Source of the DNA: Candidatus Thiodiazotropha sp.
GTDB lineage: Bacteria; Pseudomonadota; Gammaproteobacteria; Chromatiales; Chromatiaceae
Reading direction: 5' to 3'
Assembly (NCBI GenBank): GCA_050291245.1
Contig: JBNKJP010000067.1
Span: 31,636-95,635 of the forward strand
DNA length: 64,000 bases
Under the pieces are notes generated by a model. It saw only the letters and a program-made list of their open reading frames with translations. It made no database searches and was not told the origin of the DNA. This document shows positions 1,870 to 16,147 of the stretch, piece by piece. The position numbers were made by a program, and so were the translations under genes. Numbering within the stretch: the first letter of the stretch is position 1; the number at the start of each line of letters is the position of its first letter.

Positions 1870-4551
1870 ATGAAAAGAATAAGTGGAATATTGGTAGGAA
1901 GCATCACCCTTCTCCTGATGGGATGTGGAGAAAGTTCCACGACCACGGAGAGTAACCATCCACCCACTATCGAAGGATCACCAGACACAAGCATCGTCGT
2001 CAACGAAAACTACCGTTTTATCCCTACGGCCCAGGACGAGGATGGGGACAATCTTAGTTTCAGTATTTTCAACAAACCCACTTGGTGCAGTTTCGATACA
2101 ACGACCGGGCAGCTATCCGGAAATCCTGGTTCCAGTGATATAGGAAACTATCCGGGTATTGTCATATCCGTCAGTGACGGAATCGCGGATACTTCCCTGC
2201 CCGCTTTCAACCTGAACGTATCAGAACAGCCCGACAGTGGTGCAAACCATCCACCAATCATTAGTGGCTCACCCGTCACGCAGATCGTTGTGCACGAAAG
2301 TTATCTTTTTACGCCCATTGCCTCGGTCGCGGATGGGGATACACTCTATTTTTAAATCGAAAACAGACCATCCTGGATCCAATTTGATGAAACAACCGGG
2401 CGGCTCTCCGGAGTTCCGGATAGCAGCGACCTGGGTCGCTACCCGAATATTTTAATCTCCGTCAACGACGGCAGCTCAAGCAGTGCACTACCGGCTTTCA
2501 GTCTTACAGTTGCCGAGAATAACGTAAATTCCCCGCCGGCCATCAGCGGTACACCTGCTACCAGCGTCACAGTTGACGACAGCTATACCTTCACACCTGT
2601 CGCAAATGATGCGAATAACGACACCCTGACCTTCAGTATTGCAAATACCCCTCCCTGGTGCCGTTTTAATACCACAACCGGTACGCTTGCAGGAGTTCCA
2701 GGGTTCGATGATATCGGCGAGTACTCAAATATCACAATTTCCGTCAGTGACGGCATAGACAGTGTCGCGTTACCTGCCTTCTCGATTACTGTACAATCAG
2801 AACCCACCGCCAGTTCAGACAGCCCTCCTCTGCTCAATTTCAGTGATTTGATCAGCGGACCGGACACAGGTATTGGTGACGCCTCGGGCAGTGGCGTGAT
2901 TGTGACCGTATGGGGTCAATTCCTCGGGGCATCCCAGGGAACATCGAGCATCGAGTATTGCGATAGCACAGCCACCTGTCGTGCCGGTCATGTCTATTAC
3001 TGGAAGCACGCCGATGGCGTCCTGCCGGGCGGTCCCGCCAACCTGTATGCATCCCACCGTATGCAAGAGATCGCATTTTCGATACCCGATTCAGCCAGTG
3101 GCGCAGGCATGATCAAGGTAACGGTTGGAAGCGACAGCACAACGCTGCCGTTTACCGTACGCCCAGGCAATATCTATCATGTCAAATCAAGCGGTAATGA
3201 CACGACAGGGGATGGATCCTTCGGCAATCCGTGGGCCAGCGTCGGTAACGCTCTGAATCAAATAGAGAGCCCAGGCAGTACACTGTATGTTCACGACAGC
3301 CTGGTCTCCGACAGTAACCCACATCGGGCTGTTTACTGGAACAAAACAGCGGCTTCCAGCGGATTGAGTAACCAATTCAGCATCGTTGCCTATCCGGGCT
3401 CACATCCAAAGGCAGTGGGATATTCCGGATTTCGTAACTACACCACGGAAGGTCAGGTTGTCTCGAAGTATGAAGTCTATGCCTCCGAGTGCGACGAGGA
3501 TAGCCAGGGTCAACCGACCAACTGCGCGGCAACCCCATCACTGAATTTGACTTATGGCATCCAGACGTCAGCCTATGGCCGTGCCGTGGGAAATGCCATT
3601 ACTGACAGGCCCGGGGGTTGCGCCGACGGACAACAAGGCGCCATCAGTGGCAATGCACTCAACGGCAGAGACCGGGTCTCCGGTTATCAGATCCTGGGCA
3701 ATGAGGTGTATGAGTATGGTTGCACCGGATCCACCAAATTTCACCACACAACCTATCTCTCCATACGCAGTGGAAACGACAACTTACAAATCGATCCCTG
3801 GCGATTCGGTTGGAACTATCTGCATGACAACCACACCAAAAACGGCATTCATCAATATGACGAGAACAACAGCGGGACACTGTGCGGCAGTCCTAAGGGT
3901 ACGGTTATCATCAATGACAATGTCATCATCAATCAAAGTGGCGCCGGCATCAATATCGGCGCAAACTGTCCCTGGTCCAATGACTTTCAGGTCTACAACA
4001 ATGTCCTTGTGAATTTCGGCCTGGCGTTTGACTGGGACGGTATCGATCCCAATACGACCAATGGTCCAAACACCTCGGGCATCTCGGTCCAGGACGGTGG
4101 GCTCATGGGCACAGTTGAGATCTATAACAATACCATCCATACCTGGAATGATGACGATTTGGCAAACGATACTCAGGCCTGCCTGGGAGTTCAGGGTAAA
4201 GGTGACAATGTCAGTATCGTTTGGAATAACAATGTTTGTTACACCAACAAAGACAAACCGTTTTTTGCCGCGGGATGTTGTGGCGCCGATGTGCAGCTCG
4301 ATAATGCCAGCGGTGGGAATAATCTGTGGTACTACAGCGGGAGCTCACCTGCGAATGCCATACCTCCCGGCTGGGATACAAACGGCAGCACCGAGAACCC
4401 CCTGCTTTCAGTCGTCGCTTCCATCCTGACAATCGACGAGGGATCTCCGCTTATTGGAGGGGATACCTCCCAACGTTTGTCGAATGATATTTATGGCGTA
4501 TCGAGATCCACGGATTCCGCGATCGGCGCAGTACAATACAGACCCGAATAG
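1870..4551 (+). pseudogene. Large lipoprotein (3 putative-Ig/cadherin-like repeats, IPT-like domain, right-handed beta-helix) interrupted by an in-frame TAA at 2353-2355
   Basis: Lipobox MKRISGILVGSITLLLMG-C. Track ORFs 1828..2355 and 2848..4551 share one frame, which continues cleanly after the TAA (IENRPSWIQFDETTGRLSG) and completes repeats 2 and 3. About 893 aa if intact. Could be a sequencing error. Confidence 0.8.
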
Positions 4552-4673: not shown

Positions 4674-4704
4674 AAAAAACCCGGCAGATGATCTGCCGGG
4701 TTTT
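4674..4704. terminator. Bidirectional rho-independent terminator
   Basis: AAAAAACCCGGCAGAT-G-ATCTGCCGGGTTTT, a perfect stem with A and T tails between convergent genes. Confidence 0.85.
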
Positions 4705-4731: not shown

Positions 4732-5709
4732 TCAGTTCAGCTTGGCCGGGTTCTCGGTTTCACCACCCAGCAGGCTGTACTCAACCAGAGAACCGTCATA
4801 GAGCTTGGTGTTCTTGTTGCCGACGATCTCGGAGCTGACGAACCATACACCGGAGGCCAGATGTCCGGTGTTACAATAGGCGATCGTTGCCGCTTCCGGG
4901 TTCAGACCCTTTGCCTTCATCATGGATTTATAACTCTCGGCAGGCAGAAAGCGCGCCGAGGCGCCATCGGCGGTCGTCAGCAGATCAGGTGACATGTCCT
5001 TTGCGCCTTTGAGGTGACCGGAGAGTTCACCCTTTTTGGTAAAGACACCCATGTACTGGTTTTGCGGGCGGGCATCGGCCAGTTGTGCCTTCTTGTCCTT
5101 GAGGGCCTGTTTCACCTCGGCATAGGTCGCCATCACGCTCGCATCCTCTTTGGTAGCCGTCCAATCACCGGGCTGACCGGCCGGTGCATCGGTGGCTGCG
5201 GGATTACCCTCCGCCAACCACTCCGCCATGCCGCCGTTCAGAACCGCCATGTTGGCGTGGCCGTAGTATTTGAACTGCCAGTAGAGTCGGGCCGCCTGGT
5301 CCACGTCAGCCGTGTCGAGACCGGCCGGGACGAATACAATCGCGGAATCCTTGTTGACGCCCCAGGACTGAGCCAGTTTTTCGAAATCGGCCTTCAGGGG
5401 GATCAGTTTCTTGACCTTTTTACCCTGGACATCGCGAGATACCCGAACCTTCTTGAAATCGACAAAATGGGCGCCCGGAATATGACCGGACACGCTTTTC
5501 ACCACAATCTTGCCTTCTTTTTTGGCAACTTCCGGGGCTTTCGTGAAGGCCTCAAGGGGGCCACTGACCTGAAGGATGGTGACCTCACTCTGATGTGCCT
5601 TGAGCCATGCGGCATCGACCACCGGAGATTTGATCTCGATAGCCTGGGCGCCCTGAAAGACGCTGGCACCAAGCACCACCAGGCTGGCCATAATGCTGTT
5701 TATCTTCAT
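4732..5709 (-). CDS. Secreted (periplasmic) two-domain rhodanese/sulfurtransferase, SseA-like
   Basis: Sec signal MKINSIMASLVVLGASVFQGAQA; GHIPGA; LNGGMAEW; DARP; catalytic loop YCNTGHLAS; LYDGS; RBS AAGGAG. Confidence 0.9.
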   Translation of the reverse strand: MKINSIMASLVVLGASVFQGAQAIEIKSPVVDAAWLKAHQSEVTILQVSGPLEAFTKAPEVAKKEGKIVVKSVSGHIPGAHFVDFKKVRVSRDVQGKKVKKLIPLKADFEKLAQSWGVNKDSAIVFVPAGLDTADVDQAARLYWQFKYYGHANMAVLNGGMAEWLAEGNPAATDAPAGQPGDWTATKEDASVMATYAEVKQALKDKKAQLADARPQNQYMGVFTKKGELSGHLKGAKDMSPDLLTTADGASARFLPAESYKSMMKAKGLNPEAATIAYCNTGHLASGVWFVSSEIVGNKNTKLYDGSLVEYSLLGGETENPAKLN

Positions 5710-5790
5710 ACTTAACTACTCCTTAAGACAAGTTACGTGTTGTAAAAAAACCGGCAAAAACTTCATTTGCAGGGATAGACCTGAATGTAC

Positions 5791-6492
5791 TCAGGACAAA
5801 AATCTTCGTTTTGCCTCGTTCTGAACCGACAAAAGCAGCGGTGGCAAATCCAGGGGCAGTTCACTCAGCACATGGATGTCCCGATTCGCCAGTATGGGAT
5901 TGGAATCGGCCTGCATCGCCCCGGCGGAGGCAATCTTCCCGTCACGTTGCCGTAACAGGGTTTCGGCGTGGGGGCGTAGCAGTGTCACCATGGCATTCAA
6001 CCATTGCGCAACCAGCCAAGAGGGGCGCGCGCGATTGATCTCCCATTGTTCGTCAAGACGCTGCAGTATCTGATGGGCCGGTTGTATCTTCTCGTCGGTT
6101 ACCCAGCCATTGGTGGCAAACACACCGATCGGAAACCCTTGGGTATTCATGGAGAGTGCCATAATGTGAGTAAACTCACCCTCAGCCTGGGGGCGGAAAA
6201 AGAGGTGGAAATGGCCATGCTCATTTCGCTCCCAGTCTTCCGGGTCGTGGGTATGGTAATAGTACATGGCGCCCGTGTGAGCATCGCGGCAATCGTCTTG
6301 CGGGTAGTGAACCCAGGCCCGGGTGGGTCCTTCACCCTGGTCACGCAGCAATTCCCCTAGCAACGAGAGATGCTCACTGGAGAGCGCCTGTTGGATAGTC
6401 AACAACGTCTCAGCGGCCTCGGCCACCCGATCGAATTGAGGTTCGTTCAGGGTGTTGAGCCAGTCGGCGTAGTCGATTATCTCAGTCGGCAT
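5791..6492 (-). CDS. Uncharacterised His-motif protein (DUF6969-like), 233 aa
   Basis: Likely start MPTEIIDY at 6492, 13 nt after the repeat-peptide stop; the track extension to 6747 is a shadow frame of the repeat gene. Motifs YYYHTH and EHGHFHLF. The DUF name is recalled, not searched. Confidence 0.75.
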   Translation of the reverse strand: MPTEIIDYADWLNTLNEPQFDRVAEAAETLLTIQQALSSEHLSLLGELLRDQGEGPTRAWVHYPQDDCRDAHTGAMYYYHTHDPEDWERNEHGHFHLFFRPQAEGEFTHIMALSMNTQGFPIGVFATNGWVTDEKIQPAHQILQRLDEQWEINRARPSWLVAQWLNAMVTLLRPHAETLLRQRDGKIASAGAMQADSNPILANRDIHVLSELPLDLPPLLLSVQNEAKRRFLS

Positions 6493-6505
6493 GCAATACG
6501 CACGA

Positions 6506-6859
6506 TCAGTTTCGGGCGGGTGCGCAGGGGTTCTCTCCCCGGCTTGCCGGTGCGCAGGGATTTTCACCCCGAGATACCGGTGCGCAGGGATTCTCCCCGC
6601 GAGCCGGTGCACAGGGATTTCCTCCACGAGCGGCCGGTGCACAGGGATTTTCTCCCCGAGCGGCCGGTGCGCAGGGATTTTCACCGCGGGTAGGCGCACA
6701 AGGATTTTCGCCCCGGGCCAAGGCACTGGGAACAACCACTGAGGCAATGGGTTCCGGCAAGGGCGCGACGCCCAGCATACTGGCCGTCAGGGCGGTGACG
6801 GAGAGCGTCATAAGACGGCGATGTCTGCGAATGCGATGTGAGTCTGTAGGATGCTTCAT
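6506..6859 (-). CDS. Secreted Cys-containing tandem-repeat peptide (7 x RG[E/G]NPCAP)
   Basis: A 48-aa leader (Arg-rich N-region, hydrophobic stretch, ALA cleavage-like site) is followed by 7 repeats. The DNA repeats differ mainly at third codon positions in this frame, which indicates selection on this peptide. Confidence 0.85.
   Translation of the reverse strand: MKHPTDSHRIRRHRRLMTLSVTALTASMLGVAPLPEPIASVVVPSALARGENPCAPTRGENPCAPAARGENPCAPAARGGNPCAPARGENPCAPVSRGENPCAPASRGENPCAPARN
6509..6715 (-). repeat. Coding tandem repeat, 7 units of 27-30 nt
   Basis: Seven tgc[g/a]ca[g/a]gg[a/g]tt-type units on the + strand encode GENPCAP on the - strand. Confidence 0.9.
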
Positions 6860-6918
6860 GGTTTCACGTTTATTTCATTCTGTCTGTTGCGAGTCAAATT
6901 CGGGCGTCGGGACGAGCG

Positions 6919-7482
6919 TCATTCCACATCTTCATGCATTGACCTGTGCCTGGGGCTCAGAAGGAAAATCACGGCGGCCAACAGTCCCATGGCAGCAACG
7001 ATAATCCAGGGTGAGACGCCAAACAGTACCGGCAGTGTCTTCTCGTTCATCTCACCGGAGTGCAGAAGCCTCTGCATCCACGCACTATCATATTCGTAGG
7101 AAAAACCCCAGATTCCCAGCACCATGCCCAGAGCAAAGACAATGCCGTCGATGCGCCCCGACATGGCGCCTACCACTGAAGTCCCCGGGCAGTAACCGCC
7201 GATTGCCATACCGAGACCGATGAGCACCCCCCCGGCTACCGCAGCACCCAGAACGGTACGGGGTATATAGAATCCCTGAGAGTCAAAGGTGTTGTCGAGC
7301 TGGAGCCAAAGAATACCCGCCGCTGCCACCACGATGGCGGTAAACATCACCTTGAGAACGGACCAGTCCGTGAGATGAAACTGTGCCGTGAGTTTCTTGG
7401 GTGAGGCAAAACCGGCCTGTTCCAAGACATATCCGAAGAGCATACCCGAAGCGAGTGCTGTACCGGCCGAACCATAGTCCAT
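6919..7482 (-). CDS. YeeE/YedE thiosulfate/sulfur-compound transporter family protein (second half of a split pair)
   Basis: Multi-TM protein with GMAIGGYCPGT motif. Its ATG overlaps the upstream stop (TAATG at 7484-7480). Confidence 0.85.
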   Translation of the reverse strand: MDYGSAGTALASGMLFGYVLEQAGFASPKKLTAQFHLTDWSVLKVMFTAIVVAAAGILWLQLDNTFDSQGFYIPRTVLGAAVAGGVLIGLGMAIGGYCPGTSVVGAMSGRIDGIVFALGMVLGIWGFSYEYDSAWMQRLLHSGEMNEKTLPVLFGVSPWIIVAAMGLLAAVIFLLSPRHRSMHEDVE

Positions 7483-7997
7483 TACCAAACCCTCCGCAGC
7501 ATCAGGCTCATCAGCAGACCGCTGATAAAGAATGCGAGCAGGAAGGAGAAGCCGCCGATGCTCAACATAGCGCCTCCCGACAGTCCCAGCCCACTGGTGC
7601 AGCCGGCGGCGATTCGGGAACCAAAACCCGCAAGTACGCCGCCGATCAGTGCAAGAAAAACCCTTGAGGGGGCACGGATCTTACCCGTGCCATCCATTTG
7701 CAGACGAAACCGACCGGCATTGAGGGCAGCCAGCAGAGCACCGATGGCGATACCGATGACCTCAACTACAATCCAGGATGCCAGGGGATTGGCCCCCTTT
7801 GCCACCATTCCGCCAAGATAGGCATTGTGAGCGGTTGCCTCCGGCGCGAGACTCATGCCCAGGTAGGCGGCGATGCGTGCAAACACCCCCGATGCGCCGA
7901 CACCGTTACCGACCAGCACAAAGGTGAGGATGACAACCAGGCCCAACACGATGCCTGCGATATAGGGGGGCCAATAGGGACGGATAGGACCTGCCAC
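7482..7997 (-). CDS. YeeE/YedE family protein (first half of a split pair)
   Basis: GFGSRIAAGCTSGLG motif and TM helices. GTG start at 7997 has an AGGAG RBS. Confidence 0.85.
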   Translation of the reverse strand: MAGPIRPYWPPYIAGIVLGLVVILTFVLVGNGVGASGVFARIAAYLGMSLAPEATAHNAYLGGMVAKGANPLASWIVVEVIGIAIGALLAALNAGRFRLQMDGTGKIRAPSRVFLALIGGVLAGFGSRIAAGCTSGLGLSGGAMLSIGGFSFLLAFFISGLLMSLMLRRVW

Positions 7998-8139: not shown

Positions 8140-8186
8140 GGAATTGTGTCACAAATTCCATTCTCAACAATGTGGATTCTATCACA
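8140..8186. promoter_or_regulatory. Operator-like palindrome plus CRP-like site upstream of the yeeE operon
   Basis: GGAATTGTGTCACAAATTCC (8140-8159; core TTGTG-T-CACAA) and TGTGG-ATTCTA-TCACA (8171-8186). Confidence 0.35.
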
Positions 8187-8215
8187 TCCACCTTGCCTGT
8201 AACTCCGTTAGCGAT

Positions 8216-8992
8216 TCAGTCATCCGTTTTCTGCGCGGCCAGGATCAGGCGCCCCAGGAATTCGCTCACCAGTTCCGATGCCGGCACACCCTGCTTCCCT
8301 TGTCTAAGATCGGCTTTCTGATCAAACAGCAGGTTCATCGGGAGAATCCCCCTTACCCGACCTTGATGTTGATAGCACATGTCGTAGACGACCTTCGAGA
8401 CCTGGACCGGCAAAGCCACGTGCCGTGTTGTCTTGGGACTGGGCACGCTACAGTGGCGAGGATCCGAAACCACTAGAAATTCCCGACAGCTGATGGGCCG
8501 CTCCGGATGAATACTGCAGGACTGCTCGTCCAGAAAGGGACAGGGCAGATTCAGTTTGAAATAGCCCAGACCGGCCCTACGCAGCTCAGTACGGTCATTT
8601 TCCGTCAAGGCATATTCCAGAACCTCGCTCAGCCCACTGTCGCGAAATTGCTTTAGGTTATGCTCGAAACGCGCCCGGACGATCCGTTGACGCACTTCGG
8701 GCATACGATCGACCAGCGCCAACAGGGCAAAGCCTTCGGCGCGGCTGATCGGCACCAGCTGCGAACAGCAGGCGTCACAGCCGTTGCGACAGGATATCCG
8801 CTCCCCTGCCGCCTCGGTGATCCGTGCCGTCACCGAAATCACCTTGTTGGTGATATCCTGAAAGAGCGGTAACAGATCGTGTATCTGCACCGGTTCCTCG
8901 GAAATATCGGCGGAAAACCGCATGATTTCATCACCCAGTGGCACCTGGGCCTCTACCCGCTTGGTGCCGGGAAGGTTGTTTTGTTCACTCAA
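8216..8992 (-). CDS. YkgJ family cysteine-cluster protein (putative Fe-S/Zn binding)
   Basis: CRNGCDACC ... CPFLDEQSCSIHPERPISCR pattern. Confidence 0.85.
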   Translation of the reverse strand: MSEQNNLPGTKRVEAQVPLGDEIMRFSADISEEPVQIHDLLPLFQDITNKVISVTARITEAAGERISCRNGCDACCSQLVPISRAEGFALLALVDRMPEVRQRIVRARFEHNLKQFRDSGLSEVLEYALTENDRTELRRAGLGYFKLNLPCPFLDEQSCSIHPERPISCREFLVVSDPRHCSVPSPKTTRHVALPVQVSKVVYDMCYQHQGRVRGILPMNLLFDQKADLRQGKQGVPASELVSEFLGRLILAAQKTDD

Positions 8993-10564: not shown

Positions 10565-11809
10565 TCAGGCCGGGTTGGCCAGCTGTGCTCGCTGGCGTTC
10601 ACCCCGGTCCGCGGTGTTGAACAGCGCCCGCTCTGTTTCTAACATGGCCCACTCCAAGGCAGCCGCGCGTCGTTGCCGCTGAAAGCCTGTCCGCAGCACT
10701 TGTCGGCATTGGCCCGTGTCGATGGGTTGACCACAGAGATATCGCCGACCCGATAGGTACTCCGACTGATGGGCTTGCCACCAGGCGATCAGCTTGTCCC
10801 GCTCAGGCCAGGGCAGATCCTCGTCATCATCCAGCGCCACCCGTTCATCCTCGGGGTCTTCCGTGGGGCCGGCCTCGAAGCCCTCCGGCATCTCACCATC
10901 CAGATCGAGATAGGCCAGATCGAGCCCGGTGATCAGGCTGACCGCCTCACCCGCTACCCGGGCCAGCGGGGGCAGCTTCAACTGTTCAAGCAGCCAGGGG
11001 ATTGAGGCCGGATCGCCGAACCAGCCGCTCGCCTCGACCACTTCCCGACTTTCGGGCTGTTGCTGACTCAAATCGCGCAGACAGGAGACCGATACCGCGT
11101 GATCCGGATTGCGCATCAGCAGTTCGAGTGCCCTTCTCTGGTAGACAGAGGGTTTCCCGGCAAATTGCAGCAGCTCATCGACGCCTTCGGGACTGCCCAG
11201 CAGGCAGGCCGACCAGGCCGCCCAGAAACGGCAACCCTCATCCCTGTCCCTAAGCTGTGACAACAGTTGTGCCTGCAGGTCATGACGGCGAATCTCCCCC
11301 ACCGAGCGCAAAGCCCGGGCACGTACTTGCGGATCCTCGTCCTCCAGTCCGTCCTTGAGATACGGGCCGCAATCCACTCGACGGATCGCACAGGCGCTGA
11401 GTCCGATCCGGCGCAGCAGAGGCTCAGGGGATTGCAGCCAGGCGCGAACATGACCCTGTAGCCGGTCCCGCTCGACCCAGCCCAGAGCGGAAATCAGTCC
11501 CCGAGCGGTTTCGGGGGCTGCGCGGATCACTTCCAGCACCGGGGCCAGACCCGCTTCCACGGCACTGTCCAGGGCCATGAAGGCAGCGCTGAACACCTCC
11601 CCCTTTTCCTGCAATCCCAGTTGATCGAGACACTGTTTCCAACCCGCCGCACCCGCCACCCTCAGGCCATCCAGATGGGCATCGATGCGGGACTCCAGGT
11701 GAATCAGGTCATCCAGGTTATAGTGCGGCGCGACGACCGCCTCGTCTCGCAGAAGCCAGAGAAAGGCGGACTCTTCAGCGTGCTGCGAAACGATATTCTC
11801 AAGGATCAC
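10565..11809 (-). CDS. TIGR02270 family HEAT-repeat T6SS-associated protein (PA0101-like)
   Basis: N-terminus IVSQHAEESAFLWLLRDEAVVAPHY...RIDAHLDGL; HEAT repeats; GEAVSLITG; C-terminal RQRRAAALE. Confidence 0.85.
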   Translation of the reverse strand: MILENIVSQHAEESAFLWLLRDEAVVAPHYNLDDLIHLESRIDAHLDGLRVAGAAGWKQCLDQLGLQEKGEVFSAAFMALDSAVEAGLAPVLEVIRAAPETARGLISALGWVERDRLQGHVRAWLQSPEPLLRRIGLSACAIRRVDCGPYLKDGLEDEDPQVRARALRSVGEIRRHDLQAQLLSQLRDRDEGCRFWAAWSACLLGSPEGVDELLQFAGKPSVYQRRALELLMRNPDHAVSVSCLRDLSQQQPESREVVEASGWFGDPASIPWLLEQLKLPPLARVAGEAVSLITGLDLAYLDLDGEMPEGFEAGPTEDPEDERVALDDDEDLPWPERDKLIAWWQAHQSEYLSGRRYLCGQPIDTGQCRQVLRTGFQRQRRAAALEWAMLETERALFNTADRGERQRAQLANPA

Positions 11810-11828
11810 GTGGCCGGTGCGTCCCGCG

Positions 11829-12317
11829 TCAGTTGATCTGTACCGAACCGCCTTTGATGCGATTCAGCCCCGAGGAGCGGCTGAAAATGGAGGCGCCGCG
11901 TAAAATGATCTTCCCGGCCCGGGTCAGGGTAATGCTCGATTTGCCGCACTTGAGTACGATTTCCCGTTGCGCGGAGAGTACCAGACGCTCACCGTCGAGC
12001 TCAGCTTCCGCTCGTTCGGGCACCGGCTCAAGCGGCCGGGGATGCTGTAGGCGACCGATGATGAGAGGACGCTGTGGGTCGCCGTTTTCGAACAGCAACG
12101 CAACCTCCTTGCCGAGATCCTCCGGTTGAAAATCGAGGGTGCTTTTGGCACACATCGCCTCCTCCTGGGGATTGCCGGGAAACACCACCCGGGGTCGACC
12201 CTGGGGGTCCATACCCACCAAAATCCCGATCACCACACCCTCCAGTCTGCGGGACTGAGCCGTATCCTTCTGATCTGACGTGTTAGATGTTTTACTCACG
12301 ACGCTACCTCTCGACAC
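11829..12317 (-). CDS. DUF6484 (PA0096-like) VgrG-associated protein
   Basis: VALLFENGDPQRPLIIG and LVLSAQREIVLKCGKSSITLTRAGKIILRG...RIKGGSVQIN; directly downstream of vgrG. Confidence 0.8.
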   Translation of the reverse strand: MSRGSVVSKTSNTSDQKDTAQSRRLEGVVIGILVGMDPQGRPRVVFPGNPQEEAMCAKSTLDFQPEDLGKEVALLFENGDPQRPLIIGRLQHPRPLEPVPERAEAELDGERLVLSAQREIVLKCGKSSITLTRAGKIILRGASIFSRSSGLNRIKGGSVQIN

Positions 12318-12325
12318 TAGGGCCC

Positions 12326-14512
12326 TTAGTTCTGTAGTATCTTCTTGCCTTTGATGATGACATCCTTGCTCGCCTTCATATTGACCTTACCCGAACCCTT
12401 CACTGTGATGTTCTTGCCTTCGAGGATGATGGTACCGTCCTTTTTCATAGTGATCGAGGCCTTGCCAGTCTTGATCACGACCGCGTCACCGGCTTCGATG
12501 GAGAGGGTCTTGCCCACCGTGACGTTAAGGTCATCGCCCACCGCCAGATTATCGCTTTTACCCACCGATACGGAGCGGGCGTCTCCCACGGTGCAAGCAC
12601 TGCTCTTGCCGATGGTCACCGACTCGCTGCCGCCAACCTGAGCGGCGCGGGAGGCACCCACGGTTTCATTCATACCGGCACCGACACTGACCTGGTAGCC
12701 GGCGCCAATGCTCAGGGCCTTGGCCGCGCCGATGGTTTCCGTCTTGTTGATCCCCACGGTTTCGCTTTTGTTACTGCCGATATTGACGCTACGGTTGCTG
12801 CCGATCGAGACACTCTCATTGACACCGACGGTCTCGGTGCGATCGACGCCGATGGTGATGGTCTCGTTATTGCCCACCTCTTCGGTTCGATCGTGACCGA
12901 TGGTGATGGTCTCGTCATTACCCACGCTTTCCGTGCGGTTGACCCCGACCTGGGTGGTTTCATTGTTCTCCACCAAATTATCCTGATTCTTCTCCGCGTG
13001 GATATAGACTTGCTCCTCGCCTTTTTTGTCCTCAAAGCGGATCTCATTGAAGTTCTCCCCGGATCCGCCCTTGCTGCTGCGGCTCTTGATGCCGCTCTGG
13101 GTCATGTTCGCGGGCAATCCGTAGGGCGGCATCTGATCCGCGTTATAGACCCGGCCGGTGATGATCGGACGATCCGGATCCCCTTCCAGGAACTCCACGA
13201 TCACCTCCTGGCCGATACGTGGAATATGCATCGCCCCCCAGTTCTTGCCGGCCCAGACCTGCGCCACCCGGACCCAGCAGGAACTGTTCTCGTCACGAGT
13301 GCCGTAGCGATCCCAGTGAAACTGCAGCTTCACCCGGCCATATTCATCGGTATAAATCTCCTCCCCTGACTTGCCGACCACCACCGCGGTCTGGGGACCC
13401 TGCACCATGGGTTTTGGAGTCGTCCGGGCACTGCGGTATTTTTCCTTGCTGTCGGTACAGCGAAATTCGCAGGTGAATACCGGCGCTTCTGCAATCTCGG
13501 GCACCGATTCGAAGGCGTCGGAATGCAGAAAACAGGTGGTGGCGGTAATCAGATATTCCCGATTCTGATCGCCACGGGGGTGCTCGATGAGGTTGAACAG
13601 CCCCCCGGCGCAGAGTCCCCGGGCATTTGCTTCGCCCTCGAGCACCTCATAGCCGCCCTGAATCTCTTCGATGCGCTGGCGTGCATAGGAATCCCCGTCT
13701 CCGGTCGCTTCATACTCACCGGGATAGTCATAGATCTCATAGTCGGAATGACTGTAGGGACGGGGCTGAAGCGCGTTCACCAAGAGATCTGATTTCGGTT
13801 TCTTGAAATCGTAATCCGTATGCGCGTAACGGCCGGGTTGCACGCTCTTGGTGAATGACCAGCTGTGGATGTAATCCCGCCAACGAGAACTGCCCGTCTC
13901 AGTCGGCGGAACGTAGGGTACGTCACTATAAGCCTCGAGCGGTGCGTGGGAACTGTAGTCGTCACAGAGTATCAGGGTGTGTTTTCCCGGGACATGGGTA
14001 AAAAAATAGTAGATCCCTTCTTGCTCCATCAGGCGACTGACGAAGTTGAAATCCGTTTCGCGGTATTGCACACAGTATTCCCACTCACGGTAGGAACCAC
14101 TGAGTTTATCCTCGAAGTCAGTGAAGCCGTTGTCCCGAAATACCTCTTTGATGATGTCAGGGACCTTCTTGTTCTGAAAGATACGGCAGTCCGAGGTACG
14201 GGTCAGGAACCACAACCAGGGACTCAGGATGGCGCGATAATGGGCAAAGTAGGCGATATGACCGATCTGTGTAAATCGACTGACAAAACCGTTGAAATAC
14301 CGTTTGCTCCCCTCGACCATATCCACCTCTACGGTCATGGGTTTTCCCAGCAGGTCATCATGACTGATCGATTCATTGTCACTCAACAGATCCACCGTGA
14401 ACTCAAACAAACGCCCCTGTTCCTCACGTGCCTCCATACGCAGGATCAAGAGTTCATCCGCTCCCAAGGGGGTTTTGATCTGTAACTGTCGATTACTTTG
14501 TGTAAACGCCAT
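12326..14512 (-). CDS. vgrG: Type VI secretion spike protein VgrG (TssI) with gp5 C-terminal beta-repeats and no effector extension
   Basis: CVQYRETDFNFVSRLMEQEGIYYFF; PRIGQEVIVEFLEGDPDRP; HAEKN. Start MAFTQSNR at 14512 has an AGGAG RBS; 728 aa. Confidence 0.97.
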   Translation of the reverse strand: MAFTQSNRQLQIKTPLGADELLILRMEAREEQGRLFEFTVDLLSDNESISHDDLLGKPMTVEVDMVEGSKRYFNGFVSRFTQIGHIAYFAHYRAILSPWLWFLTRTSDCRIFQNKKVPDIIKEVFRDNGFTDFEDKLSGSYREWEYCVQYRETDFNFVSRLMEQEGIYYFFTHVPGKHTLILCDDYSSHAPLEAYSDVPYVPPTETGSSRWRDYIHSWSFTKSVQPGRYAHTDYDFKKPKSDLLVNALQPRPYSHSDYEIYDYPGEYEATGDGDSYARQRIEEIQGGYEVLEGEANARGLCAGGLFNLIEHPRGDQNREYLITATTCFLHSDAFESVPEIAEAPVFTCEFRCTDSKEKYRSARTTPKPMVQGPQTAVVVGKSGEEIYTDEYGRVKLQFHWDRYGTRDENSSCWVRVAQVWAGKNWGAMHIPRIGQEVIVEFLEGDPDRPIITGRVYNADQMPPYGLPANMTQSGIKSRSSKGGSGENFNEIRFEDKKGEEQVYIHAEKNQDNLVENNETTQVGVNRTESVGNDETITIGHDRTEEVGNNETITIGVDRTETVGVNESVSIGSNRSVNIGSNKSETVGINKTETIGAAKALSIGAGYQVSVGAGMNETVGASRAAQVGGSESVTIGKSSACTVGDARSVSVGKSDNLAVGDDLNVTVGKTLSIEAGDAVVIKTGKASITMKKDGTIILEGKNITVKGSGKVNMKASKDVIIKGKKILQN

Positions 14513-14752
14513 GCAATGCTCCTGCCCGATTTTGCTAAGCATAGCAAACAAATAAAGCCATGACAGTGCGCTATGGGATCGATCATTTCCGCTTGAATCC
14601 GCCATCCGAGGAGCCACATGCCGACTAATGTGCGGTTTACACCTTGTAAGTCCCGCGAAATCGTCAAACAATAGGACAAACCCTGGCATGCCTATGCATT
14701 CGGGTTTGAAGGGATGGGGTTCAGACGAACAACCTTATAGGAGTCTATTGAC

Positions 14753-16147
14753 GTGGCGGAACGCATGACCATGACGTTCGACCTGGGAAAGCCGGGCCAG
14801 AGCGTCTCAGCCTCAGGACAGAAACCCCACGTCATCGTGATCATAGGTGATTTTCAGGGTAACGGTTTTCCTGAAAAGCCCCGCAATGTGGGTAAGCCAA
14901 GGCAAGTGGAGATTGAAACCCTGGATGCTCTGATGGCGAAACTGAAACCCTCGATACCCTGTCCCTGGTCAACGGATACCGCCTCTCCCGTACTGAGTTT
15001 CGAGCGGCTCGAACAGTTCCATCCGGACCATCTCATTAACGAACTGCCATCCCCGGACAGTTGGCCGGTACATACTGGGACGACGCCTGAAACGCCGCCG
15101 CAAACGGCGTCTCAATCCAATCCCGCAATTACAGAGGAATCTGATCAGCAGACCCTTTCAAGACTGCTGGGAAATCAACCCCTGGGAGTGTCATCACCCT
15201 CTGGAGGCACATCGGGAAAGACCCGTAGGCAACAAACCCTGATTGACTCAGTGGTGCAAAAACTGACCGAGCGGGCATCAACCGACAGCGTATCAGAGCG
15301 GCACAATACCCCGACCGAATCCACTCCCCAGATTGCGGGTTCCGCTTTGCGTGGCTTGCTGCATGAGCCTGCGTTTCAACAACTCGAGTCACGCTGGCGC
15401 AGTCTCGATTGGTTGCTGCGCAACAACCCCTTCGAAACGGACTGCCCGGTCTATCTGCTCGATTTTCCGCCACTCACGACTGACAACACCTTATTAAACG
15501 ATGATCAATGCAGCAAAGCGCTTGATGCATTGCAGCAACAGCTTGTCCACCTTAATTCATCAGAAAACCAATTGATTCTGATTTTCGACGAATGGTTTAA
15601 ACCGGTGCCACAAGACATCCTCCTTCTCGAACAGTTGGCGCGGATCGCGCAACACCTGAGTGCACTTATGATCACAGCCGCGGATGTCTCGTTTACAAAC
15701 ATTGAGGCAGATACGCAAACCGGACACTCCTGGGCTGCATTTCGGCAACAGGACAAGGCGGGATATATCATGCTGAGTCTTCCAGGGTTGCTATTACGCC
15801 TGCCCTATGGACGTCGCTATGACCCGATCGAGCACGCTGAATTTGAAGAGTGGACCGGACCTGAGAGTCGAGCAAATCTGTTATGGGGCAGCCCCGCCTA
15901 TGCGTTGTCCCTGATTCTGCTGTGCGAACGAATGGAAGACCGGACTTTTCAAGAACGACGCATCGACGATTGGCCCTCCTTCGCCTATCAACAAGACGAC
16001 GAGACGTTGTTACAACCCGCAACGGAGTCACTCTACTCGGAACAGGACCTGCAGCAACTGCTTTCAATAGGACTGGTGCCCGGACTGGGCAGTCGTCGTC
16101 AGAACAGTGTGCAGTTCCCCTGGTTGCAAACGCTCAAGGGCAATTGA
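14753..16147 (+). CDS. Non-canonical TssB/TssC chimeric sheath-like protein
   Basis: The N-terminus aligns by eye to this window's TssB (VIVIIGDFQG; LSFERLEQFHPD). The remainder aligns to TssC (LLHEPAFQQLESRWRSL; LRLPYGRRYDPIE; LLWGSPAYAL) but lacks the TssC C-terminal domain. Confidence 0.75.
   Translation: MAERMTMTFDLGKPGQSVSASGQKPHVIVIIGDFQGNGFPEKPRNVGKPRQVEIETLDALMAKLKPSIPCPWSTDTASPVLSFERLEQFHPDHLINELPSPDSWPVHTGTTPETPPQTASQSNPAITEESDQQTLSRLLGNQPLGVSSPSGGTSGKTRRQQTLIDSVVQKLTERASTDSVSERHNTPTESTPQIAGSALRGLLHEPAFQQLESRWRSLDWLLRNNPFETDCPVYLLDFPPLTTDNTLLNDDQCSKALDALQQQLVHLNSSENQLILIFDEWFKPVPQDILLLEQLARIAQHLSALMITAADVSFTNIEADTQTGHSWAAFRQQDKAGYIMLSLPGLLLRLPYGRRYDPIEHAEFEEWTGPESRANLLWGSPAYALSLILLCERMEDRTFQERRIDDWPSFAYQQDDETLLQPATESLYSEQDLQQLLSIGLVPGLGSRRQNSVQFPWLQTLKGN

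Follow-up and report, generated by a model that had tools for sequence, protein, structure and literature searches.

The window analysed here, a 64-kb stretch of contig JBNKJP010000067.1 from a Candidatus (Ca.) Thiodiazotropha species, carries a cassette of five open reading frames (ORFs) which, as read from the sequence and its ORFs, all run in one direction on the minus strand from 8045 down to 4674. Two of these encode half-size proteins of the YeeE/YedE family, the third a predicted exported peptide with seven Asn-Pro-Cys (NPC) repeats, the fourth a predicted cytoplasmic protein of the family DUF6969 and the fifth a predicted periplasmic rhodanese. The association of NPC-repeat exported proteins with DUF6969 is the tightest link of the set and forms its conserved core, and around it we consider a putative relay of sulfane sulfur from the periplasm to the cytoplasm.

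The genes are tightly spaced. The first, PmpA-like gene (7482-7997, minus strand, in a frame open to 8045) has its likely start at a GTG at 7997, with AGGAG 7 nucleotides (nt) upstream, giving a product of about 171 amino acids (aa). The ATG of the PmpB-like gene (6919-7482, minus strand; 187 aa) shares its A with the TAA of the preceding gene (TAATG at 7482), and 59 nt separate this second gene from that of the peptide (6506-6859, minus strand; 117 aa). The peptide stop lies 13 nt (6493-6505) before the ATG of the DUF6969 gene (5791-6492, minus strand; 233 aa), with no obvious Shine-Dalgarno sequence in that gap, and the rhodanese gene (4732-5709, minus strand; 325 aa) follows after a further 81 nt, preceded by the Shine-Dalgarno sequence AAGGAG. 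The cassette closes with an intrinsic terminator (4674-4700, minus strand), a 9-bp GC-rich stem with a 3-nt loop and a run of six T, which folds at -26.1 kcal/mol (z = -7.4, with 0 of 200 shuffles folding equally well). At the other end, a sigma-70-like promoter match (GTTACA, a 16-nt spacer, TG-TAGAAT) lies 5' of the first gene at 8176-8203 on the minus strand; it agrees with the consensus and no more than that, since sequences of this kind are no more numerous here than expected from shuffles. The first-pass annotation of this DNA had described five same-strand genes with the TAATG overlap, the 13-nt gap, other gaps below 90 nt and a closing terminator, all of which we confirm.

By sequence comparison, nothing sets the channel halves or the rhodanese apart from the known families to which they belong. 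Both half-size products match PF04143 above the gathering cut-off, with the gene for the C-terminal half coming first (E 2e-22, profile positions 172-308) and the gene for the N-terminal half second (E 1.5e-18, profile positions 9-157, together with a match to DUF6691). An AAGCTSG motif in the PmpA-like half, homologues of which are 168-184 aa long, aligns to GGCNIG of S. thermophila YeeE/TsuA in an alignment that spans residues 237-320 of the latter. The PmpA/PmpB type has one conserved Cys in each half, the counterparts being TsuA Cys293 for PmpA and Cys91 for PmpB; here the PmpB-like half carries a GGYCPGTS motif, and its equivalence is drawn from the Pfam match only, phmmer having given no alignment to TsuA. 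PmpA and PmpB are known as C-terminal and N-terminal half homologues of YeeE for which a heterodimer has been proposed, and their relatives take up zero-valent sulfur (PMC11582611). The rhodanese begins with a Sec-type signal (MKINSIMASLVVLGASVFQGAQA) and matches PF00581 over two stretches; these tandem domains, with a six-residue Cys loop in the C-terminal one, place it among the two-domain rhodaneses. It aligns with bovine rhodanese at E 4e-28, its loop CNTGHL corresponding to CRKGVT and its Cys279 to the catalytic Cys247.

These same families could also be read as a detoxification system for chalcogens (selenite or tellurite) or soft metals, in which rhodanese and thiol peptide would reduce or sequester the substrate in the periplasm and the YedE-like channel would move Se. 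The best NCBIfam match of the rhodanese is ExtH of a selenite/tellurite operon (78 bits), the YeeE halves match YedE selenium models, and Se transport by YedE-like proteins is known in some organisms (PMC11582611). These scores, however, lie far below the curated cut-offs (78/200 bits for ExtH, 44/350 for NF033796 and 26/200 for TIGR04112), as do those of the halves to the transporter models NF041049 (35/645) and NF052577 (41/400) and that of the rhodanese to SseA/3-MST (77/250). With neither selD, selA nor any other Se gene in the window or in the flanks of related cassettes, and with carriers that are mainly sulfur oxidisers, we consider a chalcogen role very improbable.

The NPC-repeat peptide and DUF6969

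The peptide consists of a signal-like N-terminus (residues 1-48), with the basic stretch HRIRRHRRL, the sequence HRRLMTL, a hydrophobic stretch and ALA before RG, followed by seven copies of RG(E/G)NPCAP (residues 49-117). Its reading frame is under purifying selection. The seven units differ from one another at 88 nucleotides, 82 of them third codon positions, and the codon differences comprise 80 synonymous against 6 non-synonymous changes. It is this frame that selection has kept, and the repeat is not a chance low-complexity run. AlphaFold predicts the peptide to be disordered except for an N-terminal helix (predicted local distance difference test, pLDDT, 53; predicted template-modelling score, pTM, 0.13). 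No Pfam or NCBIfam model matches it, and nowhere else in the 64-kb window is there an ORF with at least two NPC motifs.

Searching with a profile built on diverse NPC peptides gave more than 890 proteins, each of which is either unnamed or called 'cytochrome c peroxidase'. Small family members show a clear signal peptide with the repeats straight after it, for example MKLNLRPVVAGLLSSGLMLGVPLASA followed directly by SPSNPCAP. Across the family N-P-C is invariant, while the linking residues differ, as does the distance from one Cys to the next (NPCAAK, CNPCNPC, RGENPCAPAx); repeats of the NPCAAK type are strongly cationic. The N-terminal region is long (about 48 aa) in the sulfur-oxidiser clade and is conserved past the hydrophobic core (LGVAPLPxPxSS..IPxAxA before RG). 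A Tat signal would have S/T-R-R-x-F-L-K ahead of a weakly hydrophobic h-region. Read by eye, the window peptide shares a twin-arginine-like RR(L/F)L with 9 of 14 close homologues, the rest having KRK, QR or SRK; the motif is absent from NPCAAK-type peptides, and the wider family has ordinary Sec-type signals. An Asn-Pro pair at a turn or helix start, as in the NPA/NPC boxes of aquaporins, would leave the Cys at the N-terminal end of a helix with a lowered pKa, which could explain the invariance of N-P-C without an enzyme.

The source annotation appears to miss the peptide gene, and the peptide is not in the protein collection. The DUF6969 ORF can be prolonged upstream (5791-6747, minus strand) in a frame that crosses the repeat but differs from that of the peptide, and the recorded DUF6969 product of the window, which crosses it in this way, has 283 aa. 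The peptide ORF is likewise present and uncalled in two metagenome contigs, at 5723-6052 of locus L082 and 5637-5906 of locus L083. As the gene often goes uncalled or is swallowed by an over-extended DUF6969 ORF, the NPC family and DUF6969 alike are probably under-counted. These omissions, together with the want of a Pfam or NCBIfam model, are what one would expect if the peptide ORF were a spurious low-complexity frame in a fortuitous neighbourhood. That view is, however, already contradicted by the third-position bias, by the more than 890 homologous proteins with signal peptides and by the gene order and adjacency kept in more than 10 loci despite different flanks, and we regard it as practically untenable.

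The DUF6969 match is full-length (PF22308, E 4e-56; 190 bits vs a cut-off of 27; profile positions 2-200 of 201) and belongs to an essentially single-domain family of 1111 clusters at 50% identity. In an alignment of 43 diverse members, P64, Y79, H80, H82, E91, H92, G93, H94, F95, H96, F98, H109, G119, F125, N128, W130, V131, W164, R183 and D184 are invariant, and H62, D67 and D70 are among the near-invariant residues; an N-terminal hydrophobic segment is lacking in 43/43. DUF6969 has an isoelectric point of 5.1, and its AlphaFold model (pLDDT 94, pTM 0.91) places N- and C-terminal helices around a six-stranded sheet, with the His residues on neighbouring strands. Judging from this model, the His, Glu and Asp cluster may be a metal site, and DUF6969 is probably a metal-binding protein with a fold that has no solved relative: Foldseek of the model against the PDB returned nothing better than E 0.43 with a TM score of 0.2 or less, and a sequence-profile search of PDB sequences gave 0 matches. 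A cupin identity was considered and dropped, since GAMYYYHTH fits the cupin pattern G(X)5HXH but the model is a single six-stranded sheet with helices and Foldseek found no cupin. Among longer homologues there is no informative fused domain except one SH3 fusion, and their N-terminal extensions, which contain no Pfam domain, may be over-called starts.

Linkage, related cassettes and fusions

A degenerate-pattern scan of one genome per species found DUF6969 in at least 587 species, and the best 80 loci were kept. Having been picked by score against a profile that started from the window protein, these loci do not give unbiased fractions for the whole family, and gene calls in the neighbourhoods were crude, relying on longest-ORF filtering in high-GC DNA. 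The five proteins of the window were searched against all ORFs of the 80 loci, and further homologues were looked up on long contigs. At 56 of the 80 loci, DUF6969 has an ORF with at least three NPC motifs within 1.5 kb. There are 74 of these ORFs, 45 of them no more than 100 bp from DUF6969 and 55 upstream on the same strand. This core is much wider than the sulfur oxidisers and often has no adjacent YeeE or rhodanese gene. A reciprocal test began from four NPC peptides on long contigs and found DUF6969 directly downstream in two, so the adjacency is frequent but not obligatory. A divergent DUF6969 beside the NPC peptides of two loci (L084, L085) was considered and set aside, the neighbouring unknown ORFs being unrelated to the profile. 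The first of these, from Motiliproteus sp. MSK22-1 (L084, 5001-9534), has an NPC peptide beside a SoxA-like cytochrome of the NPC type, a multihaem protein resembling cytochrome c552 and a YeeE of full length, with no DUF6969 within 5 kb of the peptide.

In Alphaproteobacteria, a number of loci (L029, L037, L060, L069, L073, L076 and others; e.g. L060 6935-8696) show an FGE-DUF6969-DUF2336 arrangement, often with no NPC gene within 8 kb, and their exported protein of the FGE-sulfatase family carries a GCGVCRPAARH motif and has PvdO, SenA and EgtB as its best NCBIfam matches, all below cut-off. A broad scan for Cys-rich ORFs in the 24 NPC-less loci returned high-GC noise only. The idea that the NPC repeats are themselves FGE substrates was rejected: a single repeat of the seven contains CxPxR (as CAPAR), no NPCAAK repeat does, and FGE genes are missing from the cassettes of sulfur oxidisers.

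Beyond the window, the five genes recur with their order unchanged at 10 loci from several families: Ca. Thiodiazotropha (L001), a metagenome-assembled genome of Thiohalomonadaceae (L002), a truncated copy (L003), Halothiobacillus (L004), an unclassified proteobacterium (L025), a betaproteobacterium (L062), the complete genome of Guyparkeria hydrothermalis (CP046415; L081), two metagenome contigs (L082, L083) and Noviherbaspirillum (L087). The first-pass annotation had staked its proposal on the peptide and its His-motif partner, here DUF6969, co-occurring with the YeeE and rhodanese genes in other genomes, and at these 10 loci they do so. Everywhere the flanks differ, including SSB/MFS/UvrA, YGGT/MetXW, a chemoreceptor, RuBisCO and others. 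Cassettes of the Halothiobacillaceae type have a gene pair upstream, for a Fur-family regulator and a 341-aa Tat-signal protein of metallo-beta-lactamase fold (L081 2385-4117, L083 2352-4132, L025 5052-6074), which is absent from the window; the twin-arginine signal of the latter protein reads SRRRFLRNIG, and the protein is reminiscent of SoxH. The Noviherbaspirillum cassette is bracketed by ArsR/HTH_5 regulators (3341-3739 and 8529-8897), beyond which lie a Toluene_X outer-membrane channel and a molybdenum oxidoreductase. By eye, and with no alignment made, the Cys positions of the upstream ArsR-type regulator are comparable to those of the BigR/SqrR persulfide sensors.

In the window itself, the cassette is flanked by a YkgJ-like CxxCxxCC protein, a GNAT protein, DUF922 and a type VI secretion cluster. 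The YkgJ-type gene, for a protein with a zinc/iron-chelating domain, lies directly 5' of the cassette on the same strand (8216-8992, minus strand); no homologue adjoins the cassette of any relative, and it is therefore probably outside the unit. The type VI secretion cluster (10565-16147 and onward) includes a HEAT-repeat protein, DUF6484, VgrG (12326-14689, minus strand) and a 464-aa protein with matches to both VipA and VipB (14753-16147, plus strand). Convergent with the cassette is a gene for a 567-aa Asn/Gly-rich protein (2848-4551, plus strand) that has no Pfam match and by eye resembles a beta-helix protein; ahead of it lie an autotransporter (159-1685) and a He_PIG Ig-domain protein (1828-2355).

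Gene replacement and domain fusion link the core to sulfur chemistry more directly. Eight loci from Thioclava, Marinobacter, Pseudidiomarina, Sedimentimonas and Rhodobacter carry YeeE_A, YeeE_B, an NPC-repeat lipoprotein and DUF6969, with no rhodanese. Their predicted lipoproteins end in a CX5R domain of dual-specificity-phosphatase fold, with the motif HC(x)S(x)NRVG, which matches PF04273 (BLH_phosphatase/DUF442) at 27.7 bits vs a cut-off of 26.1, and the rhodanese (10 loci) and this fused domain (8 loci) never occur together. For the DUF442 domain of Blh, thiosulfate:cyanide and thiosulfate:GSH (glutathione) sulfurtransferase activity has been measured (PMC5823870). In other proteins the NPC repeats flank a SoxA/TsdA-like cytochrome c domain (PF21342, 36 bits vs a cut-off of 27), with SoxA 1H31 as the best PDB match (E 1.5e-7). 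The invariant Cys in its EMVQxCM motif aligns to a Cys of the N-terminal haem domain of SoxA, which we take to be Cys114, a haem ligand. Cys-ligated cytochromes of the SoxA family conjugate thiosulfate to another thiolate (PMC4423706), and by analogy a thiolate tail attached to this kind of domain would resemble an acceptor that is part of the protein itself. Further fusion partners of NPC repeats are P460-like haem, DM13 and DUF6789 domains. Three exported proteins with 34-44 NPC motifs (L044 5488-6819, minus strand; L060 5444-6718, minus strand; L070 6073-7374, plus strand) have a C-terminal domain resembling cytochrome P460 (DW(K/R)Y..MPDG...FCxxCH).

YeeE genes appear around the core in three architectures: split and 5' of the peptide, split and 5' of an NPC-sulfurtransferase fusion, or full-length and 3' of DUF6969. 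A split YeeE lies upstream at 13 of the 80 loci, including the eight with the CX5R fusion, and a full-length YeeE (PF04143, E about 1e-59) lies downstream of DUF6969 at another eight, which are beta- or gammaproteobacterial (L007, L010, L015, L050, L059, L061, L068, L070; e.g. L059 7502-13453). The order in these is a small NPC peptide in some cases, SoxA-like-NPC, DUF6969, a cupredoxin-like protein (155 aa, no Pfam family), DUF302, YeeE and DUF3179.

Another possibility is a metallophore in the manner of a ribosomally made and post-translationally modified peptide (RiPP). DUF6969 would then be a metalloenzyme that converts each NPC Cys before export, for example to a heterocycle, thioamide, formylglycine or sulfinate, the secreted product would bind Cu or soft metals, and YeeE and rhodanese would be lineage-specific accessories. 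The order of precursor then enzyme, with its 13-nt gap here, is general across taxa, and a signal peptide with a repeated single-Cys motif is also seen in the EGKCG oxazolins modified by a cytoplasmic MNIO (PMC12452194, PMC11252979). A strict N-P-C despite variable unit spacing fits an enzyme recognition motif, DUF6969 has the conserved His, Glu and Asp residues, FGE-type Cys-oxidising enzymes adjoin in 15 loci, and the Marinobacter neighbours include a MerA-like reductase and an extracytoplasmic function (ECF) sigma factor. The cassette, however, contains no MNIO, DUF2063, RiPP recognition element, protease or exporter gene; every informative fusion partner is a sulfur or redox domain and none a metal-homeostasis gene; cationic NPCAAK-type repeats are unfavourable for binding metal cations; and 24 of the 80 DUF6969 loci have no NPC gene nearby. 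On this evidence we judge a metallophore unlikely.

A candidate sulfane-sulfur relay

We propose that the five genes form one transcription unit for a periplasm-to-cytoplasm sulfane-sulfur relay in which the disordered peptide serves as a multivalent thiol carrier, and we give this explanation as a whole a probability of roughly 0.45. The cassette would capture reduced (sulfane-type) sulfur in the periplasm and pass it across the inner membrane. Once exported, as its N-terminus suggests, the peptide would present seven NPC units with one reactive thiolate each, and because each unit offers one thiolate it could carry persulfides or thiosulfonates in a multivalent way, by analogy with SoxY and its Cys arm. 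The rhodanese may load or unload the peptide thiols in the periplasm, a DUF442-like or SoxA-like domain taking its place in relatives, and the PmpA-like and PmpB-like halves would make up a heterodimeric YeeE-type channel, two conserved cysteines of which could hand the sulfur to the cytoplasm. A model of this kind has been proposed for Hyphomicrobium, in which the cysteines of the YeeE-like SoxT1A would guide sulfane sulfur from the periplasmic carrier SoxYZ into the cytoplasm (PMC11582611).

The first-pass annotation had already favoured a sulfur interpretation, and it is partly supported by the co-occurrence of the genes, the replacement and fusions and the YeeE architectures, but it does not cover the core as a whole, which extends beyond sulfur oxidisers. 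Drawn from sequence comparisons, the exchange of rhodanese for a CX5R domain, the SoxA-like fusions and the full-length-YeeE architecture each appear to support the sulfur reading independently. Several observations weigh against the relay. Some 30 NPC-DUF6969 pairs lack a YeeE gene in the 8 kb around them, two of the four NPC peptides in the reciprocal test have no DUF6969 within 5 kb, and 24 of the 80 DUF6969 loci, mostly from Alphaproteobacteria, have no NPC ORF nearby, the gene order there being an exported FGE-like protein, DUF6969 and DUF2336. DUF6969 has no conserved Cys among the 43 aligned members, three of which have no Cys at all, and therefore cannot be a classical persulfide relay protein. 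The assignments of the fused domains are also distant at the level of NCBIfam: the CX5R domain has as its best matches the TIGR01244 sulfur-transferase family and Blh, both below cut-off (33 bits vs 625 for the Blh equivalog), and the NPC-fused cytochrome reaches 31 bits vs a cut-off of 110 for the SoxA equivalog. The neighbours in some lineages include a MerA-like reductase and ECF sigma factors, and considering these together with the P460-like and DM13 fusions the role of the repeat may be broader than sulfur, for example in redox or metal handling. Lastly, none of the RNA runs searched for the window holds it, and the few short contigs from two wetland metatranscriptomes that fall on the YeeE_B and rhodanese genes of a Thiodiazotropha relative leave its peptide and DUF6969 uncovered.

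Two roles compete for DUF6969. We tentatively prefer, at somewhat less than even odds, a role ahead of export, with the NPC precursor being either its substrate or held by it. By analogy, cytoplasmic MNIO enzymes act on the signal-peptide-bearing, repeat-containing precursors of bufferins and oxazolins (PMC12452194, PMC11252979), and a pre-export role is favoured by the place of DUF6969 directly after the NPC gene in most lineages, with a short gap. The next best possibility, on which we are slightly more doubtful, is that it is the cytoplasmic acceptor or processor of what the channel delivers.

A stricter form of this last possibility makes DUF6969 the end of the relay, a metal-dependent acceptor or enzyme for channel-delivered sulfur that functionally replaces YeeD/TsuB or a persulfide dioxygenase, with the peptide exported unmodified. 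DUF6969 is the sole predicted cytoplasmic protein of the cassette, and YeeE requires a cytoplasmic partner, YeeD, for uptake (PMC11073785). The arrangement would follow a mer-like logic from periplasmic thiol to membrane Cys to cytoplasmic protein, a YeeE-family gene is in the same cluster at 21 of the 80 loci in all three architectures, and DUF6969 exists in loci without nearby NPC genes. Nonetheless, DUF6969 adjoins the NPC gene and not YeeE, two other genes intervening in the full-length-YeeE architecture; the pairs without a YeeE gene and the want of a conserved Cys, given above, speak against such a role as well; and in fold and sequence searches of the PDB it is unlike any known sulfur enzyme. 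We find this stricter form distinctly unlikely.

Extending the preferred pre-export role of DUF6969 to the whole family gives a more speculative picture, which we hold to be somewhat unlikely as it stands. NPC proteins and DUF6969 would be a widespread two-component system of Pseudomonadota, in which a cytoplasmic metalloprotein of new fold matures poly-cysteine arms before export. The arms would then act as sulfur or redox carriers, either built-in or free-standing, and serve rhodanese, DUF442-like, SoxA-like, P460-like and DM13 domains. If true, the arms would make up a class of protein cofactor that is new, is matured after translation and mostly escapes gene callers, and if DUF6969 is a peptide-modifying enzyme it would represent a new enzyme class for RiPP-like chemistry on signal-peptide-bearing precursors. 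In either case, a large DUF6969 family is now tied to a large un-annotated family of Cys-repeat exported proteins. For dissimilatory sulfur oxidation, the step from periplasmic carrier to cytoplasm is recognised as a gap (PMC11582611), and the cassette, with its periplasmic sulfurtransferase, multivalent thiol peptide and split YeeE channel, is a compact and testable candidate for it. The cassette or related clusters are present in cultured organisms, for example Guyparkeria hydrothermalis, Thioclava and Marinobacter.

Comparison with known systems

The NPC-repeat family, DUF6969, their linkage and the five-gene cassette are not described in the literature that we searched. Nothing relevant was found on DUF6969/PF22308 or on the NPC repeat, neither has an NCBIfam model, and the paper on the MNIO landscape contains no NPC-type precursor. 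The earlier suggestion that this is an undescribed system thus stands for the gene set as a unit but not for all of its parts, as the split YeeE is of the known PmpA/PmpB type (PMC11582611).

Several known systems share features with parts of the cassette. Closest for the membrane components are PmpA/PmpB (Serratia pmpAB and the sulfide-detoxification operons of the BigR/PigS type), which likewise have adjacent half-size genes in a sulfur-transferase context; they have one Cys motif each, of which the motif in the PmpB-like half here is a candidate equivalent. The PmpAB proteins are reported as about 130 aa, whereas the cassette halves are about 171 and 187 aa. Compared with the PmpAB, YeeE-YeeD and SoxT systems, the cassette has no TusA/YeeD-like partner and no persulfide dioxygenase, and the window has no ArsR-type regulator; the partners here, in place of those of PmpAB or TsuA-TsuB, are the NPC peptide, DUF6969 and a periplasmic rhodanese. 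Blh, the DUF442-ETHE1 fusion of the BigR operon, has a counterpart in the eight related loci with an NPC-fused DUF442-type domain beside a split YeeE. In those loci, however, the domain is on an exported protein of lipoprotein type and has no ETHE1 dioxygenase, and the window itself has a classical rhodanese instead.

The bufferins and oxazolins are comparable on the side of the precursor, since they too are exported signal-peptide precursors with repeated single-Cys motifs, a variable repeat number and domain fusions (PMC12452194, PMC11252979), and the precursor gene lies directly 5' of that for a cytoplasmic, presumably metal-dependent protein. MNIO (DUF692) and DUF2063 are nevertheless absent from the cassette, its neighbours and the annotated recurrent neighbour clusters of the 80 loci. 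DUF6969 is unrelated to the MNIO enzymes in sequence and has a predicted fold without a PDB match. The motif is NPC here and EGKCG or CxxxC in bufferins and oxazolins, and the context is sulfur transport and transfer in place of copper homeostasis.

The proposed logic itself, that of a periplasmic protein-thiol carrier, a loading enzyme and import by a YeeE-family protein, is the same as for SoxYZ, SoxAX and SoxT1A of Hyphomicrobium (PMC11582611, PMC4423706), and in relatives the NPC repeats are physically fused to SoxA-like haem domains. The carriers differ, the peptide having neither the SoxY/SoxZ fold nor the GGCGG motif: SoxY is a folded carrier with a single Cys, whereas the NPC peptide is predicted to be disordered and has many Cys in its repeats. 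As loader the cassette would use a rhodanese and SoxAX a cytochrome, and the cassette adds the cytoplasmic DUF6969. Overall, by analogy, the logic of the cassette resembles that of SoxYZ/SoxAX/SoxT and YeeE/YeeD, as a putative sulfur relay between a periplasmic thiol carrier and a YeeE channel.

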